A program made the position numbers and the translations under genes. Of a DNA stretch of 64,000 bases, positions 12,854 through 46,024 are shown in pieces (positions within the stretch are counted from its first letter, which is position 1; the number at the start of each line of letters is the position of its first letter). This DNA comes from a virus: the IMG/VR virus record IMGVR_UViG_3300035681_000001, positions 96,001 to 160,000 of that record; one strand, 5' to 3'. The notes under the pieces were generated by a model. The model ran no database searches and had not been told where the DNA came from. It saw nothing but the letters and a program-made list of their open reading frames with translations.

Positions 12854-15800
12854 ATGAACCCAGAAGAAAACCTAGATCTAAATGACGAACTAGACTCTGA
12901 GCTAGGGGAACTAGGTGGCGAGGATTCAGTAAAAGACCAAATAGCAGACGAGCTAGAAGGTAAGCACGATATTGCTGACGGTGACCACCAAAGCTCAGTC
13001 AAAGAATTCTTTCGTATTTACGACATTAAGGCTGGTGATCCTTTTAAAGCCGTAGAACTAGAAAGTACTGCATTCTTAGAAAAGGTAACAGCGCAAGAAC
13101 TACAAAATGTCAATCGGCTTAATAAACAAGAAGATCAACGAGCAGCAATTAATAAAACTCTAGAGACGTACCGAGAAGCACAGTCACAAATCACACAGCT
13201 GCAAGGTAACCGCTTAAGACAGTCACTGACTGCTTACGGTCACGCTATAACAGAACGCAGCGGAGGTTACATAGGACCTCAAACAGGCCTAACGTTCAGG
13301 GCTAGAACTGAAGACTATTTAGCCTTTAGTAGATCACTAGGTACCAGCCGGCTGGATATGGCTGTGTTCCAAGTACAAAACCAAGAACTACTAGGTGGTT
13401 TTTTGCGCGGTGGTGTGCGGAAATTGCAAATAACCACTCAACTAGATGAACCTATCGCGGCCTCTAGTGAAAGTGTTAGTAAGTGGTACGAAAACGAAAA
13501 ACAGAGATTTGGTATTACAGGGCCTAACGAAGTACTAGCCAGTGCTTTTAGGAATAGCCCACACTTAGGCCGAGCTGAAGTAACTGTGAGTGGTAGTTAT
13601 ATTAAAAAACCCAACGACACCCAACGCGGCTTGATGCACGCCAAAATAGCTGCTTTGTATGAAGGAGACGAGACAAACCAAAAACTAGTAGGTGCTTTTA
13701 TAGGCACACAAAACTTTACTAGAGCTCTAGCCAACACACGTACTGAAGAAGAAACTCTGTTTATCTCCTTAAAAGGAGATCAAAAGTATCTTGACGGTCA
13801 AGATCAACTAGAACGAGGTCGCGCACTGATCAGACAAAGAATAGCTAACGAGATAGCACTAGTTACTGAAGGAATCAGAGAAAACTTTACTGAAGCTCGT
13901 ACTAGTAGGCAACTAACCACAGACATAGACCGCAAACTGCAAAGAAGAAACGTAAGCTACGGTACGCACGTGTTGCCAGTAATAGGCGAGATGCTCAGTA
14001 CCGCTGTTACTGAAAAGAGACACGTGCTGTTGAATATGCAATATATAGAAAAGTTCTTAGCTGCTGAAGGAGAACACGAAGGTAAAATCTACGGCAGCTT
14101 AGCCACACTAGCCGCCGAAGGTCGCTTAACAGTAGCTGTCTCTGAGACCAGCTTAGCTAAAGGTACAGGCTATTACTCTTTAATGGACCAAGTAAGAAAA
14201 GATACGGTCAACAACACCTTAATACAAACACTGCTACAAAAAGATGCTTTTGCAGTGCTACCAACCAGGTTCTTACACACTAAAAGCATTGCTATTTTTG
14301 GAGACTCAACGCTAAGTAACTTAGTTGAGTACGGTATAGGCTCACAAAACCTTAGTGAAGAAAAATACACCTCCGCAGAATTAAACTTTGAAACTTGGGT
14401 CCGGTTAACTCAAGGTGGTCTGCCAGGAGACCTGGAAGACGAACTAACTGCGTTGGGAGTACACAGGTCTAGTGGTCAACTAGCAGCTACAGCTAGAACT
14501 CGCTCGCAACTATATGTAGACCGCATGGGGTCTGCTGCACAAGTAGCAAACTTAATAGACAAATTGGGTGAAATGGGTGGAGCCGATACACATTTGTTTG
14601 ACACACTAGAACCTGGAAAAAGGTTTAAATACAACGTTAGGTATAAGACTCCCAGCTTGATTCCAAACCTAGCCCAAAACTCAGCCCGATCAATAGCTGA
14701 AAAGGCTATGTCTGGTGTAGATATCTACCTACCTAGTGCTAACAACTACCGCTTGAGCGCGACCATAAGTGAAGAATATACTCACGACCTTAAAAGAAAA
14801 ATGCCGGTGGTTTACCTAAACACCGGCAACCGTATCATCACAGGTGCTATCTATCGTATAGCACGAGACCTAGAAGGTCAGGTTATGCTGCCTAACGGCA
14901 AAATAGCTAAAGCTGGAGACACCATAAAACTTGGTGCTCTAGAGGTATTCCAAAGTTTTATTGAAACCGTAATCAAAGCCACTGAGTACGAACGTAACTA
15001 CCGAGCGCCGGTACTGGTACTTAGGTCCATGGGTGTTGAAAAGCTAAGTCGATTTATTGACTCAGTACCTGGAGACCCGCAGGGTAAAAGAGACTTACTG
15101 TACCAACTACTAAGTCCAGAAAATAAAGGACAGCAAGCGCAAGGTTCACTAGAAGCTATACGACTATTACAATCCGTAATACGAGCTGACCCTACCGGCC
15201 GACTGCAGCGGATGGAAGCCGGGTTTGTGTCTACTGGTATTAGAAACGTAGTATCAAATATCTCAGCTAGTTTCTTACAACCACACGAAGAACTTTACTC
15301 AGGTGGGCACCTGACAGCAATCATGCCTATATTTGGCATGGACAATACCATATTCAGTAAGCACTTTAGTGGTAACTCCGGCACCGCTTTACTAAACCCT
15401 TACAAGCTGTCTCACTACGACTTAATAAACACCGGCGGGTTGGATTTATTCCGTGGAGTACAAGATTCTACTCAAATACGTACTACTAACTGGCAAGACC
15501 TAGAAGGAGGGTTGTACCACTCAGAAGGCGGCCCTACCAAAGTAACTGACATAGCCCAGTTCATCAGATCTACTAAAAATATGGCTGTTATTAATGAACA
15601 GTCGTTAAGAGAGTCTCAAGCGTTAGGGTTGACCAGCAACATACAGCTCACACCTGGTACTAATTTATACGTGATGCCTTACGGCAAGGCAGAACAAATT
15701 TCCGCTCGCTTGAAAAACAAAAAATCAGAACGGGTACTGCTAGAACCTAGTGACGAGCTGCTGAAATTCATACAACAAGGAGGCCGGAATGCTAATAACT

Positions 15801-18800
15801 TAATCCAAAACAACAACTTAATCAGAAATGCAGTTTCAGTAGACTTACCACCTGAGCAATTTGCTATCTATCGTCAGATCCTGGCAGAACAAAGAGGTGA
15901 TACTCAAAAAACTCTAGAAATACTACGTGAAAGGCAATCCAACCCTTTAACTGCTATGCAAGGGTTGTTAGGTGCTAGTCAGTATCAAAAAGTACTGATC
16001 TCAGCCGGTTTTAGTATGCAGTCTGATTTCTCGTACTTTAATGAAAAGTATCTAGACAGACCCTTAGTAGACCAAACCATAAAGTCTTACTCTTTTAGCA
16101 GCGATAACGTAGGCTCAGCTTTAACGCTAGCCAGACAAGCTAAAGAAAAACTCCGTAAGGGTACTATATTCCTAGCCGAGGACATAGACCTAGAAGATTA
16201 CTCTAGGCTAGTAGGAGGAGAAAGCTATTCCGACGCTTTTGTAAAAGCGTACCTAGTTAAAAGCGAAAGTACTTATTCGTGGGGTGAAAACGTAGATGCA
16301 GAAACCAGAAAACAACTGAACAAAATGGTGTTTGTGGATCTTACTGATCCTGCAAAACCCATACTAAAACTTAAAAAGGGTGTTTACTACAACGACAGCC
16401 AAGAAATACTGGGTCTACAAAAGATCGGTAAAATGAACTCTACTTCTCTAACCTTTACCATTGACGGCCTAGAGGTACAAAGCAGAGAAAACCGCAAGCT
16501 CAGAACCTTCACTCTACCGCTGGATAACTCAGCTATTTCTCGTCGAGCTCACCGATCTATAGCTGTGTTAAAAGAAGATGCTATGGTCAGCCAACAAGGA
16601 CCCAACGTACGATTAGAAGCTACTTACAGTACGTTGCTGTTTGGTCAAACCGGGATGCGTACGATAGGAGCCAAAGGTCCTATCTATTCCGTGATGGAAA
16701 GTTTCTTTGAAGGACTAGCTAAAAACAGAGGTTGGGATAACAGCGCTGTAGCAGTAATAAACCCTAGTCAGATCAAAGACTATAACTTCGGAGACGGGTT
16801 CTCTAAGCTGTCTGATAAAAACCACTTTTTAAGAACTGGTGCAGCTGACGCTGACCAACTAGAGTACTTTAGGCAAGGTCTGCAATACCTAATAGACACT
16901 GGTAGGAACACTGAAAAAAACCTACTAGCACGTGGCGGCCCACTAAAGTGGGGTTGGGACATATATGAACTTTTAGGAGACTTAGAGCTTAACGAAATAC
17001 AACAAATCACCACTGAACAAGCTGCAGAAAAACTCAAAAGAGTACAGCAGTTTAGTGCAAAAATCTATGGTAACAAAAACTACTTCCAAGGCGGAGCCAT
17101 AGTATCTAACACATTAACTCGCGGTCTGAGCATACTAGCCACAGTTAGCTCTCAAGCTGAAGACATCGCCACGCAAAAAGAACTGTATTTAAGTAGAAAA
17201 AAACCGGGTGCACTAGAAACAGAAATAAACTACGACAGTGTGGCACTACAAGAATACCTCTATGACTCGCAGAACCCTCGTAACCGCACTAGGGAATCCC
17301 AAGCTTTGATCTTTGGTATAAATCTAAGGAACTTAAGAGAAAACGAATTAGCGGCAGCTTTCCAATTAATGGAAGCTACGTATGGTAACAACATAATGCT
17401 ACGAGCAAACATAGACTTGAGTTTCAGCCGGATTGCCGTTTCGATGGGCATGAAAACTGAAACCAAACTAGAAGCTGCCTACGCAATGGCCATGACTCAA
17501 AACCAGCTAAAAGCGTACACTTACCAAAAAGGCGGCGCTGAAGGCCTGCAAGGTGCGCTGGTAATGCTGGCTCAGTTAAACAATCGTGTAGTAAGCACTG
17601 ACGCCGTAAGCAGATACTACTCATTTGCACAAGAAACAAACTTACTAGAATTTGGTCTTAAAGAAAAAGCCAAAAAGTCTAAAAACTGGAGGGATCAGTT
17701 AAGAGCCAACGCGTTTGTGGCTGCTTTTACGAGTAAGTACTCCATATACTCCAGACAAGACCTGGTTGAAATAGAAGAAGACCGACAGCGCCGAGTCAGA
17801 GAGGAACCTATCAAAAGTTTGGTAGACGAATTTGAAAGAGGATTGTACAGGGACATAATCCCTAAAACTGAGCTGCTAACTGCACCTACTAACATTCTGT
17901 TAAACAGAATGGAAACCTATGGCGGCATCATGAGTTCTGGAACAGTAGAGCAAGCCGCTAAAGCAATGATCGAACAGTTAAAAATAGTTAGAGGTACAGA
18001 GTTTAGAGCAGGTATGCAGCAAAATTACGGAAAATTAGAATCAGGGAAACTCACTAGTAAAAAAGCTGGTGCTAAAAGGTTTACAGAAAGTGGCAGCTTT
18101 TATAAGGAGTGGTTTTACTCAAAAGAAGCAAAATCTGATCGTTTTACTTTTACTAAAAGCATAGAAATACCATCTAATATATTCTCTCCAAAAGGGCTAA
18201 GTGAAAACTTTTTGCAATATGCAGGGTCTTTTATAGAAGAACGGTTAGGTAAAGGAAACCTACTTAAAATTACGAATTATGTCCAACTGCTAGATACTAT
18301 AAAAAAAGCAGAAACTACTCCAAGCGGGTCGCTAACATTCAAAAGTTACTACGAAAAACGCTTCAGAGAAACTTTTGATACTCCAGAGACCTTAGAGTAC
18401 TACACAAACCTAATAACTAAAAGCCGGGAACGCATTTCTAGTAACGATGGCTCAGAATACCTAGAATCCATGCGCTCCCTGGCTCTTTATGCAAAAAAAG
18501 ACTCAACACTAATGCGCACCGTACAGCAATCTCAGTTGCTGCACCTACCTATGTTAGAAATGACTGGTAGCGGTGACTCGCTAAGGTACCACCTGTCAGA
18601 TCAAGTAGTAAGTGGTGCCAGGTACGGTCTGGACATCCTAGAGCAAATTAGCTTAGTGTTCCACGGCTACAGCTCAAACATTTTAATAGAACAGCGTAAT
18701 CTACAGTCTTACTTAACAGAAGCCATCCGCAGTGGGTTGCTAAAGAAAATAACTCAAGGGATCCAGCAAGGAGAGGCTTACCAAGGCTTAGACCTAAATG

Positions 18801-21800
18801 CTAAAGAAGTAGAACTCTATCAAAACCTAGTAAACACTTTAGGTAGTACGCCGCAAAGCATTCAAACACTGTTTGAAGCTAAAGACGTAATGCGTCAAAG
18901 TGAAGGCGACCGCCTCAAGATGTCAGGTACTACCTTTGTAGGTATTAACAGTGCCTTAGTAGCTGTTAAGGACTTGATATTAGGTGACCAAATCGAGCAT
19001 GTTTTTAACACTGGAGGCACCAAAGGTACTGAAGGGTTAGCTCAAACTTTAATAAAAGAACTAAACGCAACTAGCAAACGCGCTCAAGAAGCTACAAACC
19101 AAGCTCTAGCCATAAAAAGACTGTACTTAGTCGACAGCGGCTTTAGTGACCTACCTACCGAACAAAGCTTTAAAACACAAAGCAAAGCACTAAAAGAAAT
19201 AGCAAGCGAATGGAAAACAGCCGGTAAAGATAAAGAAGCCAGAAAAGTACACGAGCTAAGGTTCTACGAAACTATGCTAGGTCTGAGTGCCGGAGACCTA
19301 AGTACAGAAGAAAAACTAAAAACCCACACTGAGAAATTGTCGTCACTATACAGAGTAGCTAATGCAGTTCGTACTGGCGCACCTTACGGCATAGCACAAG
19401 ACTCAGCTTTGATTCCAGTACAAGTCAAGGGTTTAGACGCTTTAAAAACCGCTGGTACCACTACTGGTACGTTGTTGCAGCCAGGCAGGCACAACACCAC
19501 AGCTATGATCAGCTCTAGTTTGTCGTATATGTTTACGCAACTAGGAGACTACGACGGGGATACTTTCCAAGTAGCTTTTCCTGCAATAGTACAAGAACTA
19601 GCTAAAATAAAACTTACTCAAAACAAATTAGCCAGCCTAAAACCAGGTACCGAGGCCTTTAAAAACACTTCAACAGACCTAGTTGATTTACAAAAACAAC
19701 ACACTGAAGCCATAAATGCACTTACTGGACACCTGCAGAACATCGCAGAAATGCAAAAATCTGCGCTGCAGCGGTTTAGTTCACGTTACTACGGCTTCGA
19801 TAAAGAACTACTGCGATACATGACCAATGAAGAACTGCAGCACCTTAGCTTGCAGTTCCGGGATACTATGTCAGGTTCAGACAAAGGAGCTGAGTACGTC
19901 AATGAAAGCTGGCGGCTAATCACTAGGTTAGTAAAAGCTGCTGAAGCAGTAAATCCCACTAAGCTACTTGACTACGGAACTCTATTAGAGGACTTACAAC
20001 TCACTGATGGAGAACTGAAAAAAGACCTAGCTCAGGCTTTGGACCCTGAAAAAAAGTTCACAGAAATAAACGGATTAACTGTAAGAGAGTACATAAACCA
20101 GCTGCAAATCCTTAAAAACGCAGAATTTGCAGAAACTAACGTCCGCAGCATGTTAAAAAATAGTATGGGTACTGTACTAAGCGGCGTAGAACTAGAAACC
20201 CTAGGTGCTGTAGTAGGTACTACTGGTATGGGTATGCTCGGAGTTACCTATAATTCCGTCACACCTTTGATGGAATTAGTACAAGGTCAAGAAATGGCCC
20301 AACGGGCTTTGAGTAAGCCTGAAGGTGATTCTTTGTTGCAAGGCTTAGTCAACCAAACTCAAGCAGCACTCAATACGACAGTAAAACTAGAAAAAAACCA
20401 ATTAATCAAAACACTAGACCTACAAGTAGGCATAGCCCATAATTTCTCCTTGACCACGCAGCAATTCATGCGTGATGCTGCGCTGAAGCCTAAGCAAGGC
20501 GGAGGCATACTACAGCTAGCTGCTGAATATAAGTTAAGTGAAAAGCTAAAAGAAGCTGCTAACAGTCAAACAACAGAAGAACTAAAAAGAACTGCAGTAG
20601 AACGTACTCTAAAAACTTTCATTAATACTAAAGTAGGCTCTCAACTGGGCGTAGGCAGTGCTAATAATTACAGTGCGTTCGCAGCTCTAACACTAGTAAA
20701 TGAATACTTAGGTAGTAGACTCACAGCCGAAGAAATAATAAATGATGGTATGCTAAGCAGCTACCTACAGAACAAATGGAGAGAAAACCGAGACCTAACA
20801 GCAGACCGACTAGTAGCTACCGAAATAACAAAATTACATAACCTGTTCAAAATAGACTACGTAACCAACCACATCCTAAAAGTAGACTCTAGTGTAAACG
20901 GAGGTGTACAAAGGCTAGTAGAAGTAATTAAACAGACTGCTTATGGCCAAAGTGTTAAAAATGCGGGGTACGATGACGAAGCTTACGTTAAAGGTTACCT
21001 AGACCAGCGGTTTAACAGCAAAGAATACACCGAAGGTTCAGTAGACCTACTAATACAAGGCAAACAATTTAGTCAAGAACTCCAAAAAATAGCCGCAGGA
21101 GAAAGTCCTTTAATAGGTGCTTTAGGTAAAGGTGTTTCTCAGTACCTAGCTGCAGCTACGCTGCACAACCGTAAAGGCGGAGACCAAACCGCTCGTCTTA
21201 ACTTGATGAACCAGCTAAGAACTAGTTCTGACAACTTTTACGAGAACTTTACCGAAAACGTTACTTCTAAAAAAGAAGAAACCTACAAAGCTGCTCTAGC
21301 TATAAGTGCTGTAAGTGGTCTGCTACCTATAAAAATTGCATCAGCACTTCAAAACGCTACCCCCGAGCAAAGAGGTAAGTTCTTAACTTCACCTGAAGTT
21401 CAAAATTACATAAACGCTACTTTAAGAGAGTCAGGAACCATAGCCACTGGTGTAACAGCAAACGAGCAGCAAATGCGTTTGTTAAGGCAAGTACTAAATA
21501 CTGACACTAGTGACAGCGGTACTATTCAACTTCAAGCACTATCAAGAGGTGCGGCACCTATTTCAGGTGTTGCGGAGAACCCAGAAATTGAAGCACTGCA
21601 AAGAAGCATAGACGACGTATGGGCTAAAACAGAACCTATAATGGCAGCAGAAAACCAGCAACGAATTGCAGAATCAGAAGCTCGGATAAAAACTGAAACT
21701 ACTAGGTTAGTAAAAGCTCATCGTAAGGCTGAAATATTCTCAATACTAGCTGTACCCGCATTGTTAGCTACTTTCTCAGGACAAACCCTAAAACCAGAAG

Positions 21801-22489: not shown

Positions 22490-22965
22490 CTTCAGCCCGT
22501 ACTGAAAACTTTAGCTACCAAACGTTAGCCTATATGGTAGGTAGGTCTTACGTGCTGGGCATAGGAAAAACTTCAAGCTGGGCTGTAGAAGCGGCACCAC
22601 CTAACGTGGATCCCTCAATAACTGAAGTTCCGGAGTTAGGATTGTTAATACCTGCTGCTTTAACAGCCGTTTATTGGGATCCTAACGGACTTATAAGTGT
22701 AAACGGCGTGCACTACTCAACAGCTAACAACCTAGCAGATATAACCACTAACCACGCTACTAGGCTTTTGGCTACAGCTACTTTAAGTCACAACAACCTA
22801 ACCCTAGCTAGCTACCGTGCGTTAGGATTGTATCTAGCTAGTCCTAGTGGTGTGGGCCCTTGGTTACCTGCTGCGGTGACTGCTAGGACATTAGTATACG
22901 CAACGTACCAACCACCTACTACAGTTACGGCTAATTTGACAGAAAACATAAAGCTGGTCTTCTGA
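22486..22965 (+). CDS. Putative baseplate wedge subunit
   Basis: 'YVLGIGKTSSWAVEAAPP' resembles the T4 gp8-like wedge motif; 4-nt overlap with the giant gene. Confidence 0.45.
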   Translation: MTSARTENFSYQTLAYMVGRSYVLGIGKTSSWAVEAAPPNVDPSITEVPELGLLIPAALTAVYWDPNGLISVNGVHYSTANNLADITTNHATRLLATATLSHNNLTLASYRALGLYLASPSGVGPWLPAAVTARTLVYATYQPPTTVTANLTENIKLVF

Positions 22966-23801
22966 TGCTGAACTATACAGACCAATCACTGCTGGACTAC
23001 TTCCAACCCTTAGCTGGTGAAGTTTTAAGTGCTACCACCGGTCCAGCTAGTACTCCAGCCCAGCTAAAAGCTGAAGCCGTGGCCTCGGCTGCCATTTGGG
23101 CTAAAGAATACACCACTGCTTATGACCTTACACGGCTACCACAACTAGACGCCAAAGCGCTAGCAGCTCAAGAAAAGTCCTTTGAAAAAGCTAAAATAAC
23201 AGCTCGGCAAAACAGAGATTCTGGTACCGAAGACTTTTTCAAGATCCTTTACACCAACGTAAAAGGTCAAAAGAAATCTTTCGTGTTTGCTTTGTTACCT
23301 GCCATAGACCTAAGCAGTCGGGGTGTAGGGAACTCAAACGTACCCGACCTAAAAGCTGGTGTAGTAATAAGAACTTCTATGCGTCAGAAAAACATTCCCA
23401 TACCAGGTGGTACACCCATAATTCAAACCATAGGGGTAGACAGCACTATTATGCAAGTGGTGGGGGCTTTCATCGGCAGTGAGAGAATAACTAATCCAGC
23501 TGACTCCTCACGTGGGGACCTAAGTACTATTTATACTGGCTTACAAAACCTTAGTACTGCAGAATCTTCAGAAACTAAAGCACGAGCTTTTATGTCTGAA
23601 GTTGTACACTCAGGTCGGCCGGTAGAATTCCACGCTAAGTCAGTATCCCGTACCAGTGATAACCCTAAAGCTAAAGCAGAAGGCATGGAGCTAAAATACA
23701 AAGGCGTAATAGTTAACTTCAAGTTTTATGCTGCTAGGCGTAACCGCAGCTACTACGCGATAGACTTAATCTTAAGTGAATATGACGTTAATAAAGCATG
23801 A
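22965..23801 (+). CDS. Putative tail tube initiator/baseplate hub protein
   Basis: 'IPIPGGTPIIQTIGVDSTIMQVVGAFIG' resembles tube-initiator/gpU-type proteins; position in the tail module. Confidence 0.4.
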   Translation: MLNYTDQSLLDYFQPLAGEVLSATTGPASTPAQLKAEAVASAAIWAKEYTTAYDLTRLPQLDAKALAAQEKSFEKAKITARQNRDSGTEDFFKILYTNVKGQKKSFVFALLPAIDLSSRGVGNSNVPDLKAGVVIRTSMRQKNIPIPGGTPIIQTIGVDSTIMQVVGAFIGSERITNPADSSRGDLSTIYTGLQNLSTAESSETKARAFMSEVVHSGRPVEFHAKSVSRTSDNPKAKAEGMELKYKGVIVNFKFYAARRNRSYYAIDLILSEYDVNKA

Positions 23802-24766: not shown

Positions 24767-25017
24767 CGGAACCCCAAACGTACCTTTACTTCTACTAAAT
24801 AAGTCAATAAAGCACTCAAAGCGGCTATCTGGCAGTGGTCAGGACCTACAGCTACCACGCTACTTATAATTACAATCAAGTGGTCTAAGTGGTCACCACA
24901 CGAAAGTTCATGTAAGTACTTAACGTACTGAGCTACTGTTAGGCCGCGTCGCTGGGCTGCGGCTCTAAGTGCTACAGCGGTCTGCGGATCTAAGTTGAAC
25001 GAGGGCATCAGGGGCAA
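24763..25017 (-). CDS. Small hypothetical protein, ribbon-helix-helix-like N-terminus
   Basis: 'FNLDPQTAVALRAAAQRRGLTVAQYVKYL' is RHH-like. Confidence 0.4.
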   Translation of the reverse strand: MPLMPSFNLDPQTAVALRAAAQRRGLTVAQYVKYLHELSCGDHLDHLIVIISSVVAVGPDHCQIAALSALLTYLVEVKVRLGFR

Positions 25018-29400: not shown

Positions 29401-29402
29401 CT

Positions 29403-32368: not shown

Positions 32369-32389
32369 AAATTCTAAGTTAGCTTTACC

Positions 32390-32417: not shown

Positions 32418-32454
32418 TCTTAGCAATTCAGCTAGGATTTTCGCCTCGCAAAAC

Positions 32455-33030: not shown

Positions 33031-33041
33031 GTAGTTAAATT

Positions 33042-33068
33042 AAGCCCCCTTAACCGGGGGCTTTTTTG
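33042..33068 (+). promoter_or_regulatory. Hairpin/T-tract/G element, copy 14
   Basis: AAGCCCCC TTAACC GGGGGC TTTTTT G, then GTGC-TTCG-GCAT. Confidence 0.85.
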
Positions 33069-36800: not shown

Positions 36801-39800
36801 ACCGAAATCTGGCAGCGCGGGATGTGTCTAGTAGGCACTGAAACCTGCCCGGTTTATAACGTGGAACTCTTCGAGTCTACTACACCTAAAGAAAACGTAG
36901 GTGAGTCCTGGCAGTTCCCTTCAGAGCTGCGTGCACTGCAGTCCATCACCAGCAATGGTGTAAACCCTAAAGCGTTGGATGAGCTCACCAACACGATAAA
37001 AGCAGACATCCTGCCTAATTTGGCTATGGCTAAAATCCTGGAAGGGATGGCTAGCGGTAGTCTACTCGGAGGTAAGCGCACCATAGCAGTAGAAGCTGCA
37101 GCCGACGGGCACTACCAAGTATCTACTGCAGTGCACGCCCGGTTGCAGCAAATAGTAGCAGAACTAGGTGTAAACCTAGCCGCACCCGCAGAAGCTTTTG
37201 AAAAGCTGTCTGTAAGACTAAAAGACGTAGTCTTTACCTTTAAGGTGTCTGGCAAAGAGACCAGCATTTGGCTTCCTGCATTGTGGGAACTCAATAAGCT
37301 GCGTTCTACCAACGAGTCTGGGCAAACTTTGTCCAGTGTGTTCTACCGTTATTTCTTAGTGCCGCTGTGTCTCAACAACCACGTTGAAGCTGCAGTAGTA
37401 ATAAGACTTCGCGGTCAGCTTAGTTCGTTGTTGTACTCTAGCGAAACACCTAAGCTGCTGAAAGGCCGCACTAAAATAGGTGGTCGCCGTGTAGGTTTAC
37501 CTTGTATCCCCATAAGTGAAACTTGGGTGTTGTATTCAGATGACCCGAGTTCTGAGTACCAAAACGCACTGCAGTATTGCCGGCGTGCATCGTTAAACCT
37601 AGAAATAGGCCTTAACGACCACTTGGTCGGTTACAACTCACGTGCACCACTAGCAGCTGGCTGGTTGTCTAAACTGCGTGTGATTACACCTGCAGAAAAC
37701 ACCAGTAACTATTGGCAACTGAGCCCTTACTATTTGGGTATCAGTCCAGTAGCGCTGTACATAGACGGTGGTGATTGTGACGGTGACTCAGGCTATTGGG
37801 CTGAACAAGGACCTGAGTTTGAGAGTGAAATCCTGGACTACCAAACCGTTATAAATATCCGCAATGCGGGTATGGATGGCGACTGTCGGTATACAGGTAG
37901 TTACGCTTACGCGCACTACACGCGTAAGGATTGGGCTAAAGCTACCGTAACTATGTCTTCGGGAGTTATCAGTGGGTGTGTAATGACAGAAGAGCAGTAT
38001 TGCTCTTATAACGTCGGTGCACACATCGTACAACACGAAGCTGTCGGGTCCAGCTATAAGCTGTACATGCTAGGTGAACACTTGATTGACTGTGCTCAAG
38101 CTTATGAAAAACTAGGCATTGAGTGTGAGTTGTTGAAGCCCTTTATGGGTGCTCTAGCACCTAGTTTGGTGCTGATACTGGCAGAAATCTACGAGACTAT
38201 TCTCGGCGGTTTTACTCCAGAAGCACTGGAGTTGTTTGAAAGCTACCTCAAACCGGCTATCAAACAAGGTAAGCCTATCGCACTTAAGCAGCTTACTGAT
38301 TTTCGTAAGTTGCTGGAGCGCTTTGGAGCTAACTCTTTAAGAGCTGAGGAAATCCTAAAGTTGATCAATGTGATCTCTTTAGTAGCTGCCAGTGAAGTCA
38401 ACGGGTATCTGTCCCGTGAATACACTGGTTGGGATGGCCTAGCTTTAAGTGCAGCTCATGTTGTATTCGAGCTGGGTCGCGGTCGCTTTCACGGTATGTC
38501 AGCCTTTACTAAAGGTCAAATGCCTCAAACGCGTCAAGCGTTAGGGCAAAAAGCCGCACTAGTTAAGTTCTACGAACTGCTGCTAGGTGGACTGCAGACT
38601 AACCGTGAGTTGTACCACCGCTTATCGGAGACTTCTTCAGTAATAGGTTGCGGTAGGGTGCTGTTCAAGCACCTGCACGTAGAACTCGGGTTGATTAGTT
38701 CTAATTATCCCTGGTTGCGTCCAAACCTAACAGAACTGCAATGGCTTCCAGAAGTCTTTGAGCAGTTTAAGTGCTGTCAGCTTGCACCAGCTACTACCGA
38801 ACTTACTGAGACTACAACCGAAATTACAGTTGAAGCTACTACTGTAGCTACACCTGAACCTACTACTGCTACTACTACTAAACCTATTACAGTTCAAGTT
38901 ACACCGGAACCTACGTCAGCCGCACTACTTGAAACACTAAAGAAAAGTGTTTTATTTGAGCTTTGTGCTGAGCGTGGTCTTACAGTAGCCAAAAAAGCTA
39001 CCAAAGAGCAGTTGGTAAGCGCTTTACTAACTGACCCTAACGGACCACCCTCAGAGGCTTTAGTTATTGAGGTTTCACAAGACCCGGCAACTAAAGCTCT
39101 GAAGCAACGTATTGCTGAACTAGAAGCTCAAGTTGCCCAACTGGAGGCTCAAGTTACGCAAGACCCAGAAGATCCTGAAGAGCCACTCGCTGTAGTGTCT
39201 AAACCTAAACCGGACCCCAAACCTGATTCAGGTGCTGGGACAAGCGAACCCACCACACCCATTGCACCCGCTACCATGTCCGCTACATCAACGGCAGTCA
39301 ACGTACCTGCAGGTATGCCGGCTGACCTAACACCTTCTCAGATTAGAGCGTTTGAGTTGTTTCAACAAGGCCACAATTTGGTCATCACTGGAGCAGCAGG
39401 TACAGGTAAAACCTACCTTAGTAACTTGCTTAGGGAATACGCCCTTAAGAAAAACTACAAACTAGTAGTAGTAGGTTCCACAGGCACTTCGGTACTAAAT
39501 ATCAAAGGTGACGGCACCCTTAACTCCGTATTTGGGTTGGGTCTAGGTTTTAGTGGTAAACGCCCTTCGGGGCTAGAGGCCGACAGTTTACTAGCTGCTT
39601 CCAGAAGATCCCAGATTTGTAACGAGTACTTAGCGCTTACTGATGAAGCTGGTTTGATAATACTGGTAGACGAAGTAAGCATGGTAGATACTAAACTAGC
39701 TCGCCTAACGTGGGATATCACAGCACTACAAAACCACCCTACTCAGTGGGTGTTGATAGGCGATCCAGGACAGTGTACTCCTCCAGGAGGAGAGCTGTTC

Positions 39801-40679
39801 TTTAAGGATTCTACGTTGGACTATGAAGACTACACTGAACCGTATGAGTCTTTGCTAAAAATCGGTGATTTTAAATGCGTAGCCTTAAAAGAAGTCGTAC
39901 GTCAAGCTAACGATCCTGCTTTTTTAGCAGATCTAAACGACTTGCGAGTAGGTAAGACCCCAGGTTTAGTACTAAGAGAGCGCTTTGTGGCGTCTATTAA
40001 AGGATTACCGGAGCAAGCTATACACGCTTATTACAACAACGCAGACGTTGCTTTACACAACCGTAAGGGTACTGAACAACTTATTGCTGCCGGTGCTGAG
40101 TCTAGGGTATACCATGCCACGGTAAGAAAAATAAGTTCTGGGGCTCCTGATTGGCCCGCACAATTCAGCCCTATTGAGCCTCAAATGACACTGGCTATTG
40201 GTATGCCAGTAATGGTACGTAAGAACCTAAAAGCAGCAGATAGAACTTTACTAGCGTCTAACGGCACCACTGGTGTGGTAATAAAACTAAATCCAGATTC
40301 AGTGGTGCTAAAACTGAAAAACGGTAAAACTATCACTATCTCCCAACAAGAACTAGACGGCCCTAAAGACGGTAAAGGTCGTGATCTAGGTAAATACAAA
40401 CAACTGCCCTTGCACCCAGCGTTTGCCATTACCGGGCATAAGCTGCAAGGTCTAACCCTAGACGAACCTTTGGTGGTACACCTCTACCAAAGCGGCAGGT
40501 ACGGTCAAAGAGCAATCAATACTGCAGGCTGGTTGTACGTAGTATGCTCCAGAGTTACAGAAGCTCGACATTTATACTTTGCAGTAGGAGATGCTGATCC
40601 AACCGTAGTGTTTAATTGGTTCCTGAGTGGCAACCGAGTTGATCAGTCAGCGCTGGAATGGCTTCAGAGCCTGGAATAA
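33831..40679 (+). CDS. Two-barrel RNA polymerase-like protein fused to a SAP/HeH-like motif and a C-terminal Pif1-family (SF1B) helicase
   Basis: Numbering from 33720: MKARSIAKALL (K858/R860/K864), then DVDIIHF; KLLKGRTKIGGR..GLP; NSRAPL (R1308); LGISPVALYIDGGDCDGD (D1352/D1354/D1356). Helicase motifs: GAAGTGKT (1891-1898), LVDEVSM, IGDPGQ, LKEVVRQAND, AITGHKLQGLTLD, YVVCSRV. ATG 33831 (C/A-rich leader) or 33888 is preferred over 33720. Confidence 0.8.
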   Translation: MNTATTAKNKENQKGNEKTMPQVVFKFYHHEVNPEATKVAILAPGHAAGPVNANVPVNFDTGHLDKAWDTMNLQGVNRRIDWQGTRLGAGSAQFRETDGSFSPVVWSSTPRTRNLRAPVQLLLATLVGGQPDWVTGAVPSGNDAAIRQHVAAAIAAGKSHDYSQHGFSLEAYVSLSEILAQPGAIHPVTGAPTGRHWFGVIGQVYSMDTCTTGGAVQTRYNCSAFDLYYLPEPEFGHSSLTPLDPYGKLNLYESLTYVPEAKVLPTTTVVLPAVPTAVPTAVPTAVGSTTVSTADTRRYWNSFGIHGLQVQEITVDSVVHDFDLINNFEGWSEIQSLFRLDGSAAAAAVTVADAARYWVSKKMYGSYQKIGDLAAYEWTVADLKDLIEIIVKVGTSRGLDADHLPCWSGEMLQFGAGGPAFKVLDKRIYDYRGRLLQNVVELKVSSHVNESGRMEYTLDGLQQVSSATQLLKLVYFGYLPLLAQSITQVMDALPANFSEFCRNAWVGANLVSWSKDQVLEQNSAARLRMDNCYPMTIRQPYSPLSGSYWVRLNEDGRFAANLVSHYEKQIRYSSKECSDLFKEAIRVAYREGGLDYRFDKKLLVGGGLGAVNCRLLAANDPAAFAALQAKFGVTESSVLSGTLKLAKGLKRLFLSMAQSVPVKGALPAGFLFRGQESPVEGFLAAVALAPTVVFTPGMSASVGAKPVAEVRKTVRNYVLHSFGTEPEFLMGLGCAIKPNNVVTETTLGITRYTLVRPTPIKPNDLLIQVANPSGSVNDVVNTSTFEGDLQWLEWQVVPSMLPGQTELKLSWEFLTYESDMKARSIAKALLVDVNPDVIFAHNKDLGDVDIIHFQDSLKVDLWWSYLMCAGTTLRYNWDKPEVAELRRLAVAINSRFGFAAFQGILIDPVHIALGHYDAFQAEFRRLFSRPLWFKFAQLAEFGRLLYDMHQSDQYERVDLGDGYESYVTKGADPNAPDTNITSFVVESGTVTEIWQRGMCLVGTETCPVYNVELFESTTPKENVGESWQFPSELRALQSITSNGVNPKALDELTNTIKADILPNLAMAKILEGMASGSLLGGKRTIAVEAAADGHYQVSTAVHARLQQIVAELGVNLAAPAEAFEKLSVRLKDVVFTFKVSGKETSIWLPALWELNKLRSTNESGQTLSSVFYRYFLVPLCLNNHVEAAVVIRLRGQLSSLLYSSETPKLLKGRTKIGGRRVGLPCIPISETWVLYSDDPSSEYQNALQYCRRASLNLEIGLNDHLVGYNSRAPLAAGWLSKLRVITPAENTSNYWQLSPYYLGISPVALYIDGGDCDGDSGYWAEQGPEFESEILDYQTVINIRNAGMDGDCRYTGSYAYAHYTRKDWAKATVTMSSGVISGCVMTEEQYCSYNVGAHIVQHEAVGSSYKLYMLGEHLIDCAQAYEKLGIECELLKPFMGALAPSLVLILAEIYETILGGFTPEALELFESYLKPAIKQGKPIALKQLTDFRKLLERFGANSLRAEEILKLINVISLVAASEVNGYLSREYTGWDGLALSAAHVVFELGRGRFHGMSAFTKGQMPQTRQALGQKAALVKFYELLLGGLQTNRELYHRLSETSSVIGCGRVLFKHLHVELGLISSNYPWLRPNLTELQWLPEVFEQFKCCQLAPATTELTETTTEITVEATTVATPEPTTATTTKPITVQVTPEPTSAALLETLKKSVLFELCAERGLTVAKKATKEQLVSALLTDPNGPPSEALVIEVSQDPATKALKQRIAELEAQVAQLEAQVTQDPEDPEEPLAVVSKPKPDPKPDSGAGTSEPTTPIAPATMSATSTAVNVPAGMPADLTPSQIRAFELFQQGHNLVITGAAGTGKTYLSNLLREYALKKNYKLVVVGSTGTSVLNIKGDGTLNSVFGLGLGFSGKRPSGLEADSLLAASRRSQICNEYLALTDEAGLIILVDEVSMVDTKLARLTWDITALQNHPTQWVLIGDPGQCTPPGGELFFKDSTLDYEDYTEPYESLLKIGDFKCVALKEVVRQANDPAFLADLNDLRVGKTPGLVLRERFVASIKGLPEQAIHAYYNNADVALHNRKGTEQLIAAGAESRVYHATVRKISSGAPDWPAQFSPIEPQMTLAIGMPVMVRKNLKAADRTLLASNGTTGVVIKLNPDSVVLKLKNGKTITISQQELDGPKDGKGRDLGKYKQLPLHPAFAITGHKLQGLTLDEPLVVHLYQSGRYGQRAINTAGWLYVVCSRVTEARHLYFAVGDADPTVVFNWFLSGNRVDQSALEWLQSLE

Positions 40680-40751: not shown

Positions 40752-40793
40752 CGTCCCAGCGTCTCCTACCTGAGGGGGCGCGGGGGGGTTTTT
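40752..40793 (+). terminator. Probable intrinsic terminator after the RNAP-helicase gene
   Basis: GC-rich imperfect stem ending in GGGGGGG TTTTT. Confidence 0.55.
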
Positions 40794-41382: not shown

Positions 41383-41522
41383 ATGGCCAGCCGGGAGCCT
41401 GTCCCGGCAACTCCCCACTGCCAATTACAATCAAGCCACAGGACAACTTCCGCTCTATTGGGGGCTCAACTTTTTGCTCAATTTGCAGTAAGTCATTTTG
41501 ATAAAACTGAAAACTGGGACGT

Positions 41523-41957
41523 ATGTCCTATAGAACCACAACCCTAAACCACCTCATGTATTTCACTGAATCGCTACTAAGCTTCAATACAGAAAAACTA
41601 CTAGACCTAAGTAAACATTATCAACGACTGGCATCTCAAACCTCCTACGACGACTTAAGAACATTTCAGGCTTTCAAAAGGGCCAAGCTTGAAATTGATT
41701 GCGAAATAGCTAAGCGTAAAACCCGCCCAACCTACACGCGCTTAACTGACTACCGTACCGGCGAGCCAATCTACTTTGACTCTTCAGTAGTTCCTTTAGT
41801 GGTAAAACAGGAGAAAGACCCTGGTTACCACTACACATTAGTAGTAACTAATCACGGTAGTTACTCCGTTAGAGAAACCGCAGCAGAAGTACTATCAGCT
41901 AGCGGATGCAGTATTTATACACCAGCTCCACGCTGGACAGCAAAAATAGCACCTTAA
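41523..41957 (+). CDS. Hypothetical protein, paralog of 43129..43704
   Basis: Shared blocks FQA.KR.KL.IDCEI..R and HYT...T.H..YSV.ETA.EVL...PAPRWTAKIA. Confidence 0.7.
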   Translation: MSYRTTTLNHLMYFTESLLSFNTEKLLDLSKHYQRLASQTSYDDLRTFQAFKRAKLEIDCEIAKRKTRPTYTRLTDYRTGEPIYFDSSVVPLVVKQEKDPGYHYTLVVTNHGSYSVRETAAEVLSASGCSIYTPAPRWTAKIAP

Positions 41958-41977
41958 ACCACTCACCCCTTACACCC

Positions 41978-42202
41978 ATGAAACTATTCAGCTGCTACAA
42001 CTGTGGTGTAGTACTAGACCCCAAAGTTCTTGCTTGGCCTACTAAACACTTCGACTACTCCAGACAACCTAGATACTCTGGGGATCTCAGTCCATGTGGA
42101 AGGCTAGTAGCAGTGGGGCCGGAGGGCGACTTAAGATGGAAACCTACCCTACCCTGCCCTGTTTGCCAAAACCCCCTAACTGAACCTGGAGCCAATGACT
42201 AA
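41978..42202 (+). CDS. Small zinc-finger protein
   Basis: CYNC...CPVC; ATG 41978 follows a C/A-rich leader. Confidence 0.65.
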   Translation: MKLFSCYNCGVVLDPKVLAWPTKHFDYSRQPRYSGDLSPCGRLVAVGPEGDLRWKPTLPCPVCQNPLTEPGAND

Positions 42203-42413
42203 CCTACCACCACCCGCGACTTGGGGATACATACGCTGGCATAGCAAGCTAACTAGAAGAGAAGGTGGTTGCAACTACCCAATAGCCAACCCTGCCGAGA
42301 AAGTTGCTCAGTTAAATTCGTCAAAGCCTACACTAGAGCACTGGTATATCCCTGTATCAGTAACCCTCCCCTCACCTAGCCAATGGACTTCACCCACCCC
42401 ACAAACGAAGTAA
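42195..42413 (+). CDS. Small hypothetical protein
   Basis: Coupled overlaps with both neighbours. Confidence 0.5.
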   Translation: MTNLPPPATWGYIRWHSKLTRREGGCNYPIANPAEKVAQLNSSKPTLEHWYIPVSVTLPSPSQWTSPTPQTK

Positions 42414-42803
42414 ACCTCGAATATCAAAATGGCAATAAGTACTCAATTGATAAAGAAGGAAATTTAATATACCGTAAGTTTGAAAACGGCGACCAAGAAT
42501 GGTACGAAGGCGCAAAGCTGATTCGTAAAAAAATATGCAAATGGCAGAGAGAAATCTTATTGTTCCGCTGGTACCGTAACCTACCAACAGACTGAACAGA
42601 AGTTGGAGATTTGGTATGACGAGGGACGTATGGAAACTCGTCGTAGGTATCCTAACGGCGATGAAGAGTGGTATGACAAGTTCCATAGGGAAATAAGATC
42701 AGTTTCAGAAGGCCTTACAAAAGAATATACCTACGACGCAGATGGCTACCGTAGAGCCGTAAATCTAAAATACAAGCAAGTTTCTCCTAAGGCCCTGTTC
42801 TGA
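42383..42803 (+). pseudogene. NG-x-x-EWY repeat protein split by a +1 frameshift in an A7 run
   Basis: Removing one A at 42527-42533 joins 42383..42595 to 42603..42803 and restores four units: YQNGNKY, FENGDQEWY, YANGREKSY, YPNGDEEWY. Confidence 0.7.
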
Positions 42804-42820
42804 AACCTTAAAACCCTAAA

Positions 42821-43117
42821 ATGAACACTCCTGAACTAACGTGGGAATCTCGGCAAACCAGATATAGTAATACAGTTAAAACCTACAGAGATGACGGCCT
42901 TTGGTTAGCAGTACGTTTTAAAATCAATCAAGGTTGTTTGTCCTCTTCTGTTAAGACATACAAAACCGACACTTTACTAAACGAAATAAACCTTGATATG
43001 GGTAAGTTTAGTTCTGACGAAGGGGCCAAACTTTTCGCCCAGTTTGCAGTAAGTCATTTTGATAAAACTGAAAACTGGGACGTATGTCCTAACTTAAAAG
43101 TCATTAGTATCTACTAA
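42821..43117 (+). CDS. Hypothetical protein
   Basis: 98-aa ORF whose 3' end is duplicated at 41461-41530. Confidence 0.65.
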   Translation: MNTPELTWESRQTRYSNTVKTYRDDGLWLAVRFKINQGCLSSSVKTYKTDTLLNEINLDMGKFSSDEGAKLFAQFAVSHFDKTENWDVCPNLKVISIY

Positions 43118-43128
43118 CCCACACTCTC

Positions 43129-43704
43129 ATGGATTCTTACGAAGAGACCTTCCACAACTTGATCAAAGATGTGCCCTTAGAAGAGCTACAAGAACTCAGC
43201 AAAAGAGGACAGATTGTAGCTCACGCAGCTCGCGACAATTCAACGTTTCAAGCTGCTAAAAGAACCAAGCTCAGGATTGACTGCGAAATAGGTCGGCGTA
43301 GAGCCCAATCAGTTGCAGTATCTGACTTCCCACGTGCAGTATCTCACCTCCCACATTCCATGAACAACTCCACTATTACTGATTCCCGGGACCAAATGTT
43401 ACAGCAGCCTACGAACTCTGAAGCTCTCAAAAAAACCGAGCCAGTCAACGGGAGTAGACCTCAACCTACAGCACCTTACGTGTGTCTGACAGAGTACGCC
43501 ACTGGAGAGCTTATGTATTGTGACTTTGCAGCAGATCAGCCGTTAATGATAAGAACTATAAGAGCTCCTAACTACCATTACACGCATATTATGACAGCCC
43601 ACGCTGAATACAGCGTTAAAGAAACGGCAGATGAAGTGCTGTTAGCTACCGGGCGGGGTAGCTTTAGACCAGCTCCACGCTGGACAGCAAAAATAGCACG
43701 TTAA
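43129..43704 (+). CDS. Hypothetical protein, paralog of 41523..41957 with an internal insertion
   Basis: See the paralog entry. Confidence 0.7.
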   Translation: MDSYEETFHNLIKDVPLEELQELSKRGQIVAHAARDNSTFQAAKRTKLRIDCEIGRRRAQSVAVSDFPRAVSHLPHSMNNSTITDSRDQMLQQPTNSEALKKTEPVNGSRPQPTAPYVCLTEYATGELMYCDFAADQPLMIRTIRAPNYHYTHIMTAHAEYSVKETADEVLLATGRGSFRPAPRWTAKIAR

Positions 43705-43739
43705 GTCACTACCCACCTACTAACCTACACTCTAGACTC

Positions 43740-44743: not shown

Positions 44744-45070
44744 AACTAGTGGATCGAACGCTGGTTAAACTTAGGCAACCTGAGGGGGTTGGGGCTAAGT
44801 TTAAACTCCCAGATCGGATTAACTCAAAATAAAGAGGCCCTTTAAGCTGCGGCCATAATACCGCAGCAGTTCTGTGAAACCGGATACCGGCACTAGCAGA
44901 CTTGGTAGAGCCTTACTGCCACCGAGTCCACTACCACTGAGTCCACTACCACCAACCGTTGCAGGTTGGTGGTAACACTCTAGGTTGCACTTGTTAGTAC
45001 TTTGAAAAACAAAGGAAAGCACACGGTCACAAGACCACCTAAAAAACCAAAAAGCCAAAAAACCAAAACC

Positions 45071-46024
45071 ATGACTACTACTAACGCCAACACTGCCACT
45101 GCTGCCGCAACTCAAGCTCAAGCCGTCGCTGCTGGGTGTAAACGGTCGCAACCTTATGCTTTCTTCGTGAAAGAGGTCGCAAAGGATGAAAATCTCGCTC
45201 GTTGCGTACCAGCGTGCTTCAAAGCACAGGCCCAAAAAGGTGCTTCATGCTTTTCGCTGTCTAGCGAAGACATAACCCAGCGTCGTTTCTCGATCGTCAT
45301 CAACGATCCGACGTTGATGCAACCGGAAATGGGAATGCTGCTGGACGACGAGACCAAAGCTAGTTTCTCGGAACTCCCGCTTAGTGCAACTGCACCTGGT
45401 AACAGGTACGCATATTTGCAAGCCAAAGTGTTGGAGCACTACAAACAAGCCTTTCAAGCCGGCAACAACCCGTACACCGGCGTGAAGCTGAAGTTGCACC
45501 TTAGTGCAATTATGGACTCACAAGGCAAAATGGTGATTCAAGTTCCTGGTGCTAAAGAGTTGCCTGAGGGTACCGGTTGGCTTAAGGGCTTTAAATCAGC
45601 CACTCTTCTGGTGGGCCCTGAATACGTAGAGCAAGGGCTTTTCTCTCTAGAGGAGTACCACGGGCTGCACGAATACGCCACTTTGGCGGGTCTTATTACC
45701 CAACTCGACGGTACCCGTTACAGCTCAGTAAACGCCAAGCAGCGTCAGTATCTAACCCCTAAACCAGGGGTTGAGGCTACATTTCAGTTCCAGATGGTTC
45801 CTAGGCTAAATCCTACCAGTAACGTTTACGTGCCTGGCCTAGCCGACATCCGTTGGTTTGGATTCATGGTAGTTGGTCTCAATAGCGGCGGTCTCGCACA
45901 AGAAACCGCACGCCCGGCAACCACAGCTCCTCAGGAAACTGCTGACCTGCCCCCACTGCCTCCCCTGCCCGTACCTACTACTGCCCCGGTACCTACTACC
46001 GAGGACGAGGACATTAAGTTCTAA
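45071..46024 (+). CDS. Putative single-stranded DNA-binding protein
   Basis: Flexible Pro/Thr linker ending in an acidic tail with a terminal aromatic residue (TEDEDIKF), the typical SSB C-terminal pattern; A-rich leader; followed by a terminator. Confidence 0.5.
   Translation: MTTTNANTATAAATQAQAVAAGCKRSQPYAFFVKEVAKDENLARCVPACFKAQAQKGASCFSLSSEDITQRRFSIVINDPTLMQPEMGMLLDDETKASFSELPLSATAPGNRYAYLQAKVLEHYKQAFQAGNNPYTGVKLKLHLSAIMDSQGKMVIQVPGAKELPEGTGWLKGFKSATLLVGPEYVEQGLFSLEEYHGLHEYATLAGLITQLDGTRYSSVNAKQRQYLTPKPGVEATFQFQMVPRLNPTSNVYVPGLADIRWFGFMVVGLNSGGLAQETARPATTAPQETADLPPLPPLPVPTTAPVPTTEDEDIKF

Follow-up and report, generated by a model that had tools for sequence, protein, structure and literature searches.

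The stretch of viral DNA analysed here, 64,000 nucleotides in full and hereafter the window, covers bases 96001-160000 of a 189,763-bp IMG/VR virus record (IMGVR_UViG_3300035681_000001; 96% complete), and its plus strand carries two giant genes, an array of small hairpin-punctuated genes between them and a gene for a 340 amino acid (aa) protein downstream. The first giant open-reading frame (ORF), ORF1 (P0001; window 12854-22489 (+), 3211 aa), is a candidate virion-associated two-barrel RNA polymerase (RNAP) with a PLD-like N-terminal region and hydrophobic C-terminal segments, and the second, ORF2 (P0002; 33720-40679 (+), 2319 aa), has a two-barrel polymerase-like core fused to a superfamily 1B (SF1B) helicase. 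Positions are those of the window unless given as genome positions. The virus is a myovirus: its tail sheath is encoded at genome 93999-97034 (-) and a baseplate wedge protein at genome 83371-84456 (-). Its head protein shares ~30% identity with the head proteins of Microcoleus phage My-WqHQDG and of two Microcystis phages, Ma-LMM01 and MaMV-DC; the virus is therefore a distant relative of the Fukuivirus group, and we read the window as a gene set conserved in a Fukuivirus-like lineage of cyanomyoviruses related to Ma-LMM01.

An initial annotation had seen in both giants a DxDGD triad, an upstream R-x-P-like motif and earlier basic motifs, in the order expected for fused β- and then β′-type barrels; these motifs were confirmed and are conserved in homologues of both proteins, the DxDGD with little or no change in either family down to 20-28% identity. 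Strings of the form D.DGD occur only twice in all six frames of the genome, as DYDGD at aa 2232 of ORF1 and as DCDGD at aa 1352 of ORF2, each within a block that is invariant in nine homologues. By eye, the motifs follow a grammar shared with β′, P23-45 gp64/gp96 and phi14:2 gp66: R-x-P comes after a hydrophobic run and is separated by 35-59 residues from G/A-DbDGD, behind which stands x3-V-x2-P. The corresponding sequences are DYDGDTFQVAFP in ORF1, DFDGDQMAVHVP in Escherichia coli β′ and DFDIDKMYVMLP in gp66; for the β-like block, E. coli β reads GRHGNKGV, 24 residues, VLNP and ORF1 reads MRTIGAKGP, 27 residues, VINP.

ORF2 probably starts at ATG 33831, because its homologues begin at the Met encoded there. 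Its β′-like catalytic segment (N-S-R-A-P ... W-Q-L-S-P ... G-G-DCDGD; 37635-37787 (+)) includes the conserved upstream R-x-P motif N1306-S-R-A-P1310 (R1308), and its earlier basic motif, K858-A-R860-S-I-A-K864, is invariant. This basic motif is preceded by a confidently modelled β-flap/wall-like β domain (aa 745-854; domain and motif together at 35952-36311 (+)), which matches the RNAP β flap/wall and ends four residues before K858; in β and Rpb2 structures the flap/wall also precedes the GDK..RHG.KG motif. When the ORF2 model was searched with Foldseek against the PDB, the top matches were the AR9 non-virion RNAP, QDE-1 and many Rpb2/β chains, all sub-threshold (E 0.008-0.16), and the DCDGD segment weakly matched a double-psi barrel. 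The C-terminal region (aa 1853-2285; 39276-40574 (+)) is a Pif1/Dda-type SF1B helicase domain, with Walker A/B and SF1B motifs over ~430 aa and matches to phrog_325 (9.5e-46), PF13604 (3.5e-11), PF05970 (1.1e-8) and PDB Pif1 helicases (1e-14 to 1e-21, the latter by profile). Outside the helicase, ORF2 had no Pfam, PHROG or PDB sequence match, and in megablast and tblastn searches of both giants against 50,697 phage records the helicase part alone matched. Between core and helicase lies a Thr/Pro/Glu-rich low-complexity linker (aa ~1690-1850; 38800-39150), within which a short stretch (...LFELCAERGLTVAKKATKEQLVSALL...) resembles an SAP/HeH DNA-binding motif, with no Pfam match. A hairpin with a T-run (40760-40793 (+)) follows the stop codon. 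ORF2 homologues, all of them giant, number seven cluster representatives and one further protein in IMG/VR. A distant homologue of 4182 aa (L003:6356-18901, on a 155,913-bp IMG/VR contig) carries NADAR, 2-oxoglutarate-Fe(II) (2OG-Fe(II)) oxygenase (AlkB-like) and DUF4326 domains between core and helicase, and the same genome has a 3992-aa ORF1-like gene.

ORF1 had no Pfam, PHROG or PDB sequence match. Eight homologues were found, plus 15 further cluster representatives among 1.84 billion, and its family comprises 24 giant homologues of 3000-5400 aa at 20-30% identity, across which the DxDGD block is at least 90% conserved. In the β′-like catalytic segment (V-R-T-G-A-P ... I-P-V-Q-V-K-G ... L-G-DYDGD-T-F-Q-V-A-F-P; 19370-19582 (+)), R and G are invariant in the 24 sequences and P, G, D, D, G, D and Q are at least 90% conserved; the upstream R-x-P-type motif, R2173-TGA-P2177, is conserved. 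The β-like motif (G-M-R-T-I-G-A-K-G-P, 27 residues, V-I-N-P-S-Q-I-K; 16652-16777 (+)) has nine invariant positions in the nine-homologue alignment (G1267, M1268, R1269, K1274, G1275, P1276, P1304, Q1306 and K1308). A second block considered as the β-like motif, GDRLKMSG at aa 2012, in which R2014 is also invariant, was set aside for the aa 1267 block because the arrangement R....KG, 27 residues, NP fits β better. Downstream of the DYDGD, the near-invariant block Q-Q-F-M-R-D-A-A-L-K-P-K (20459-20494 (+)) is possibly trigger-loop-like, from a resemblance, seen by eye, to the T-Q-L-T-M-R-T-F-H of β′. The N-terminal region holds two HKD-type (PLD superfamily) motifs ~200 aa apart (H262-x-K264...G-T-Q-N287 and H475-x-K477...G-S-Q-N499; 13637-14350 (+)), both invariant in the nine-homologue alignment and found in most homologues; the homologue P0009 reached 26.8 bits against Pfam PLDc_2 (PF13091), for which the cut-off is 27.

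The array that leads into ORF2 (27100-33067 (+)) consists of 14 composite elements, each with a GC hairpin, a tract of six or seven T, a second hairpin that begins at a G, a Shine-Dalgarno sequence and an ATG, with one small gene per unit. This agrees with the initial annotation: all 14 hairpin/T6-7/G elements are present at 27130-33067 on the plus strand, and the array ends in ORF2, its last unit comprising a 175-aa gene and ORF2. GT follows the T-tract in 13 of the 14 elements, and in the 11 where a start of at least 40 aa follows, the next ATG lies 31-58 nt from the T-tract (exactly 31 nt in seven of the 14). The hairpin element is the dominant non-coding repeat and, by k-mer enrichment, the most enriched non-coding word of the genome; a perfect-stem scan found 17 such hairpins genome-wide, 10 of them within the 6-kb array stretch. 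Terminator-like sites numbered 37 vs. 15.7 ± 4.5 in shuffles, and sigma-70-like promoters were depleted (3 vs. 11.9 ± 3.3). All 14 elements have the form of an intrinsic terminator, a GC-rich stem-loop directly before at least five T. The second hairpin begins 1-3 nt past the T-tract in 11 of 14 elements here (79%) and in 9 of 13 in the relative L005 (69%), which has an equivalent array, vs. 5-21% in controls; its sequence varies and its pairing is kept. As this hairpin starts at the G, the RNA 5′ end would lie at or near that G, and it could arise either from initiation or from cleavage in the U-tract between the two hairpins.

Three tandem ~40-nt repeats (..CCGAAATTTGGAAAAAATGGTGCGCGGGAAAA..; family D12; 26905-27044 (+)) lie ahead of the first element, which itself comes before the first gene; they form a candidate promoter/operator region upstream of the array and have a GGAAAA-rich equivalent in L005. 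A further hairpin/T7 copy lies after the 340-aa gene (46040-46076 (+)). One unit of ~130 nt between two elements (27677-27808) has no ORF of at least 40 aa and may encode a small RNA or micropeptide, and the 175-aa gene before ORF2 contains at least five copies of a 9-nt unit in tandem (variants of AGTAAGTGA, family D8; 33452-33539). Downstream of ORF2, at 41460-43720, gene segments 1561-1747 nt apart are 74-93% identical (families D6, D10, D11 and D14), which indicates paralogous small genes.

The two giants co-occur wherever a long contig is available (contigs of 205 kb and 181 kb, record G001, MaMV-DC and Ma-LMM01), G001 being a further distant relative with both genes, and the synteny around them is conserved or mirrored in relatives. 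In the cultured Microcystis phages the counterparts share ~22-25% identity with the proteins here and are annotated as hypothetical proteins. MaMV-DC ORF82L (3560 aa; Ma-LMM01 gp080) matched ORF1 by blastp (1e-7) across its DFDGD and QQMLRDAIKPK blocks; an HKD pattern search of ORF82L gave no match. The best viral match of the ORF2 model was a piece of a MaMV-DC protein (Foldseek E 1.6e-7, probability 1.0), the BFVD entry A0A075BUT7, which, from its length (839, half of 1677), we infer to be the second half of ORF65L. The ORF2 family aligned to ORF65L with an hhalign E-value of 9e-5 and the motifs aligned one to one. ORF65L reads QRTPMG, 38 residues, VNPLLWQAANEG-DADGD (QRTP..(38)..VNPLLWQAANEGDADGD), a motif even nearer than that of ORF2 to the β′ arrangement LNRAP...QLHPLVCAAYNA-DFDGD; unlike ORF2, gp064/ORF65L (~1675 aa) has no helicase. 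A blastp comparison of ORF1 and all window ORFs from 22-48 kb with Ma-LMM01 gp054-gp080 returned ORF1-gp080 as the sole match.

Ma-LMM01 and MaMV-DC show the mirror image of the gene order: the head module, the giant gene in divergent orientation, the PAAR cluster, the array of small genes and, last, the polymerase-like gene. In both, a hairpin followed by T5-6 and C(C)TT(C/T)T(A/G)GTG recurs 6-9 times among the genes that lead into gp064/ORF65L, and MaMV-DC has no further copy within 1-99 kb. By eye, the sequence downstream of the T-tract pairs back, its 3′ arm overlapping the Shine-Dalgarno, whilst the sequence itself differs from that after the T-tracts of the window (CCTTCTAGTG vs. GTGGGC). 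In Ma-LMM01, 6.7 perfect 42-bp tandem repeats (43271-43551) lie between gp064 and the early cluster gp063-gp054, in a position analogous to that of the ~40-nt repeats at 26905-27044, though the sequences are unrelated. The early genes of Ma-LMM01 as defined by RNA-seq are gp054-gp063 (PMC5780444), which directly adjoin gp064 and the 42-bp repeat block. No phage transcription factor emerged from that transcriptome study, which left the temporal control in three stages unexplained (PMC5780444).

The initial annotation had also placed a single-stranded DNA-binding protein (SSB)-like gene after ORF2, as part of a self-contained transcription system. The 340-aa protein in question (45002-46024 (+), likely start ATG 45071) begins 4.3 kb and ~12 small genes past ORF2 and has a basic core, a Pro-rich linker and an acidic ...EDEDIKF end. 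Linker, acidic tip and aromatic end (...PPLPPLPVPTTAPVPTTEDEDIKF) resemble an SSB tail, and its three homologues end EDEDVKF, AEDIRF and AEDIAF. However, it had no Pfam, PHROG or PDB match and no detectable OB-fold, PF00436 matched nowhere in the genome, and its Atlas structural lead to the SSB family reached a TM score of only 0.26; a role as SSB is a lead. The claim of self-containment is contradicted by a sigma-70-family gene (genome 7696-9618 (+), 640 aa) with regions 1.2, 2, 3 and 4, and because the phage encodes this factor, host core RNAP appears to be used for part of the programme. In the sigma protein, regions 1.2 and 2 span aa 20-144 and regions 3 and 4 span aa 464-607, with ~320 aa inserted between 2 and 3. 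Other products of the genome include RecA, a DNA polymerase of family A, a primase of the DnaG type and helicases of the SNF2 and DEAD types.

A number of results weigh against RNAP activity of the giants or against a phage-run programme. The AlphaFold model of ORF1 (aa 1860-2720, from 24 sequences; pLDDT 68) is nearly all helical, shows no barrels and falls below a confidence of 50 at both motif regions it covers, the better β-like motif (aa 1267) lying outside the modelled range; fold searches with it returned helical-repeat and coiled-coil noise only, and Atlas features of aa 1990-2600 lean weakly to tape-measure proteins. A complex prediction of aa 1190-1400 with aa 2150-2330, the putative barrel packing, scored 0.00, which has no bearing either way. 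The AlphaFold2 model of ORF2 (aa 481-1680, nine sequences) is poor, with a pLDDT of 53 and the DCDGD loop below 50. Neither sequence nor profile comparison detected similarity to RNAP families (Pfam Rpb1/Rpb2 domains and the viral members): Pfam at E ≤ 10 gave nothing on four short motif segments, a PDB profile search linked neither giant family to RNAP, hhalign of alignment A2 with phi14:2 gp66 was not significant, and hmmsearch with five sub-profiles against E. coli β, β′, gp66, gp64 and gp96 gave nothing above a background of 200 shuffles each. Likewise, hhalign found no similarity between the ORF1 and ORF2 families. The NADAR/AlkB-like/DUF4326 fusion in the distant ORF2 homologue would suit a DNA-repair or anti-defence machine as well, the sigma-70-family gene shows reliance on host RNAP, and each of the three expression classes in the Ma-LMM01 study was credited with sigma-70-like promoters (PMC5780444). 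Accepted viral two-barrel members such as P23-45 gp64 are likewise largely invisible to sequence search (PMC10770324). Weighing these points, we regard ORF2 as probably a two-barrel polymerase, on structural and motif evidence of moderate strength set against sub-threshold fold matches and low confidence at the DCDGD loop. For ORF1 the motifs stand in the expected order, but because the model is helical, with confidence below 50 at the motifs, and the fold searches returned noise, its support is at the motif level, and we consider it a two-barrel polymerase candidate slightly favoured over its absence.

The closest known arrangement is that of Thermus phage P23-45, in which gp96 is a tape-measure-fused virion RNAP and gp64 a non-virion RNAP (PMC10770324). 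As there, two divergent single-chain two-barrel candidates are encoded, a giant one in the structural module and the other among early genes; the P23-45 triads are DYDGD in gp64 and DFDGD in gp96, with R-x-P ~40 residues upstream as in ORF1 and ORF2, in barely recognisable sequence, and no sequence similarity was detectable between the two pairs. Unlike P23-45, the structural-module protein here has PLD-type motifs (its tape-measure identity being only a candidate), the second protein has an SF1B helicase as its fusion partner, and the virus, known here from sequence alone, is a myovirus with a cyanobacterial host and a sigma factor. The crAss-like phage phi14:2 offers a second parallel in gp66 (PDB 6VR4), also a giant virion-type protein with a DxDxD in the structural module, reading Y-R-I-P ... 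G-S-DFDID-K-M-Y-V-M-L-P against V-R-T-G-A-P ... L-G-DYDGD-T-F-Q-V-A-F-P in ORF1; unlike ORF1, gp66 has no PLD motifs, hhalign and hmmsearch gave no similarity between them, and ORF1 gave no fold match. Coliphage N4 injects a giant RNAP that uses small GC-rich hairpin promoters just upstream of +1 with SSB cofactors (PMC4496689). This likeness is an analogy only, as the N4 enzyme is T7-like rather than two-barrel; the N4 hairpins combine stems of 5-7 bp with loops of 3 nt and lack a T-run, whereas the elements here have the form of terminators and no protein of an SSB family was identified. The C-terminal 430 aa of ORF2 are matched strongly by Pif1/Dda SF1B helicases, which resemble that region and differ from it by its fusion to a 1700-aa polymerase-like region; the literature on phage two-barrel and virion RNAPs, in which neither helicases nor fusions were a search term, yielded no helicase-fused equivalent.

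The explanation we put forward builds on what is directly established, namely the conserved motifs, the helicase domain, the elements with their hairpin structure, the shared gene order and the existence of homologues, and it is from these that we infer polymerase activity, virion location and which enzyme transcribes what. ORF2 would be a highly divergent nucleotide polymerase of the single-chain two-barrel type, in all likelihood a DNA-dependent RNAP, with a β-like half (flap/wall and K-x-R-x3-K) and a β′-like half (NxRAP...QLxP...DxDGD), whose low-complexity linker joins the core to a 5′-3′ SF1B (Pif1/Dda) helicase. The helicase would track the non-template strand in the direction of the polymerase, opening DNA or clearing obstacles ahead. 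ORF1 would be a giant protein of the structural operon with a PLD-type (two HKD) domain, RNAP-like motifs in order (R....KG ... NP; RxGAP; DYDGD; QQxxRD) and hydrophobic C-terminal segments, which may be ejected from the virion and may transcribe the first genes, as in P23-45 and crAss-like phages. The 14 elements would act as intrinsic-terminator-type hairpins with a second hairpin from the first G past the T-tract, cutting the array into one-gene units whose mRNAs carry protective hairpins at both 3′ and 5′ ends, the 5′ ends being made by re-initiation at the element or by U-tract cleavage, and the phage sigma factor with host core RNAP would serve part of the programme. As a whole, this combination of an ORF2 polymerase-helicase, an ejected RNAP-like ORF1, a terminator-punctuated array and additional use of host RNAP is tentative, and we judge it close to an even call on the short side.

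ORF2 alone may be the polymerase, with ORF1 an ejection or tape-measure-type structural protein that uses its PLD domain (phospholipase or nuclease) to attack the envelope or DNA and whose DYDGD is an unrelated metal site. The all-helical core model, whose confident helices hardly admit a barrel near the 2014 motif, fits such a protein, as do the helical fold matches, the tape-measure-like Atlas leads, the conserved HKD pairs, the hydrophobic C-terminal segments and the structural operon setting; yet four RNAP-like motifs follow the canonical order and persist across 24 highly divergent sequences, DbDGD with x3-V-x2-P behind it is the β′/gp66 signature, the best β-like region (aa ~1230-1320) is outside the modelled range, and P23-45 demonstrates that tape-measure protein and RNAP can be one protein (PMC10770324). 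We consider this account unlikely, though a serious contender. Quite improbable, by comparison, is that neither giant is an RNAP and that ORF2 is a helicase-centred DNA-processing, repair or anti-defence protein with convergent acidic metal sites at the DxDGD motifs. Such a protein would explain the lack of profile-level RNAP similarity, the sub-threshold status of all structural matches, the domains inserted in the distant homologue and the presence of a sigma factor, but it leaves aside that two independent searches each gave an excess of RNAPs among the best ORF2 fold matches, that a flap-like domain stands directly before the K/R motif as in β and Rpb2, and that the NxRAP...QLxP...DxDGD spacing is β′-like and the pattern sharper still in MaMV-DC ORF65L; sequence searches equally miss the viral two-barrel RNAPs already known (PMC10770324).

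If ORF2 is a two-barrel enzyme it might still serve replication, as a primase-helicase or a PolD-like DNA polymerase with its own 5′-3′ helicase. The Pif1/Dda fusion resembles primase-helicase architectures, QDE-1, one of its Foldseek matches, copies single-stranded DNA, and two-barrel cores occur also in archaeal PolD (PMC7708050). A replicative role is, however, made less necessary by the DnaG-type primase and family A DNA polymerase that the phage already has, the Ma-LMM01 and MaMV-DC homologues lack the helicase, and ORF2 closes an early-type cassette array by the early cluster, outside the replication module; we hold this to be very unlikely. The elements, for their part, may each be a promoter for a phage RNAP, on N4-like logic, as the initial annotation proposed, and transcription would terminate and re-initiate there for every unit. 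Here and in L005 one element already stands ahead of the first gene, with nothing to terminate, the T-tract is so near the ATG and sigma-70-like promoters so scarce, the 5′ hairpin begins exactly at the G, a C(C)TT(C/T)T(A/G)GTG is conserved past the T-tract in Ma-LMM01 and MaMV-DC, and the hairpin is centred ~15 nt before the G, compared with -11 for the N4 hairpin (PMC4496689). Against this, the elements have the classic make-up of intrinsic terminators, a 5′ end at the G would equally result if an RNase cut the U-tract between the hairpins, and the three tandem repeats upstream could hold the real promoters, so that we rate promoter function as doubtful whilst keeping it in view.

The surroundings of the giants bear on the earlier placement of ORF1 in the tail module. 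ORF1 is followed by three co-oriented genes that are syntenic in relatives (159, 278 and 322 aa; 22486-24766 (+)), the first of which is weakly baseplate-wedge/tail-fibre-network-like (PF25691, E 2.4e-5, below the curated cut-off), and then by a cluster encoding a PAAR-motif protein and a ferritin-like protein (24763-26769 (-); PAAR match in the syntenic L004/L005 genes, ferritin PF00210 1.1e-6). Baseplate-like and PAAR genes thus come after ORF1, as that placement implied, but ORF1 is divergent from the major head protein, protease and portal genes (5161-11567 (-)), and the sheath and baseplate wedge genes lie upstream on the other strand. Elsewhere in the genome, a gene weakly matching the prokaryotic E2 family D adjoins a ThiF/E1-like gene (genome 26978-28854 (+)), and another (genome 51939-52763 (+)) strongly matches RlaP (E 5e-70), an RNA repair pathway protein of the DNA polymerase beta family of nucleotidyltransferases. 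Three more very large ORFs are present, of 4148 aa (genome 63328-75774 (-)), 2261 aa (genome 16929-23714 (-)) and 1712 aa (genome 10764-15902 (-)); the latter two matched no Pfam family at E ≤ 0.001, and the first, in a PHROG scan only, matched three PHROG families of unknown function. The word ACCTAAAGCA/TGCTTTAGGT occurs in 12 copies genome-wide (for example at 75798-75807, 107794 and 161963), one of them just upstream of the minus-strand gene for the 4148-aa protein.

Phage single-chain two-barrel RNAPs are few (YonO, crAss gp66 and P23-45 gp64/gp96) and matter for the question of how cellular RNAPs arose. If the assignment were true for both giants, two further RNAP families would be added, the one a helicase fusion and the other a fusion with a PLD-type domain, and both are rare, with about 20 ORF1 cluster representatives among 1.8 billion and seven of ORF2 in 5.8 billion clustered sequences. 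A pair of virion and non-virion two-barrel RNAPs is of a kind already known from P23-45; the fusions are what is unusual here. The initial annotation was aware of no such combination in a cyanophage myovirus, a remark that needs qualifying, since unannotated remote homologues of both giants are present in Ma-LMM01 and MaMV-DC. New here is the recognition of these homologues (gp064/ORF65L and gp080/ORF82L), located by the early cluster with an analogous hairpin array. What the initial annotation observed is largely right, and its interpretation is partly supported: ORF2 is a plausible polymerase-helicase, ORF1 remains a candidate only, and the roles of the hairpins as promoters and of the 340-aa protein as SSB are putative. 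Double-hairpin punctuation would be a compact design of nature for insulating expression units of one gene each. In its fullest form, which we think rather improbable, the proposal would be that Ma-LMM01-type cyanomyoviruses and their relatives run an unnoticed dual two-barrel RNAP programme, with an injected PLD-fused virion polymerase, a second, helicase-welded polymerase expressed from a terminate-and-restart array, and the sigma factor with host core RNAP for a further class of genes. As homologues of both giants exist in the cultured, bloom-relevant Ma-LMM01, the unexplained three-stage timing of its infection is directly testable with gp064 and gp080.

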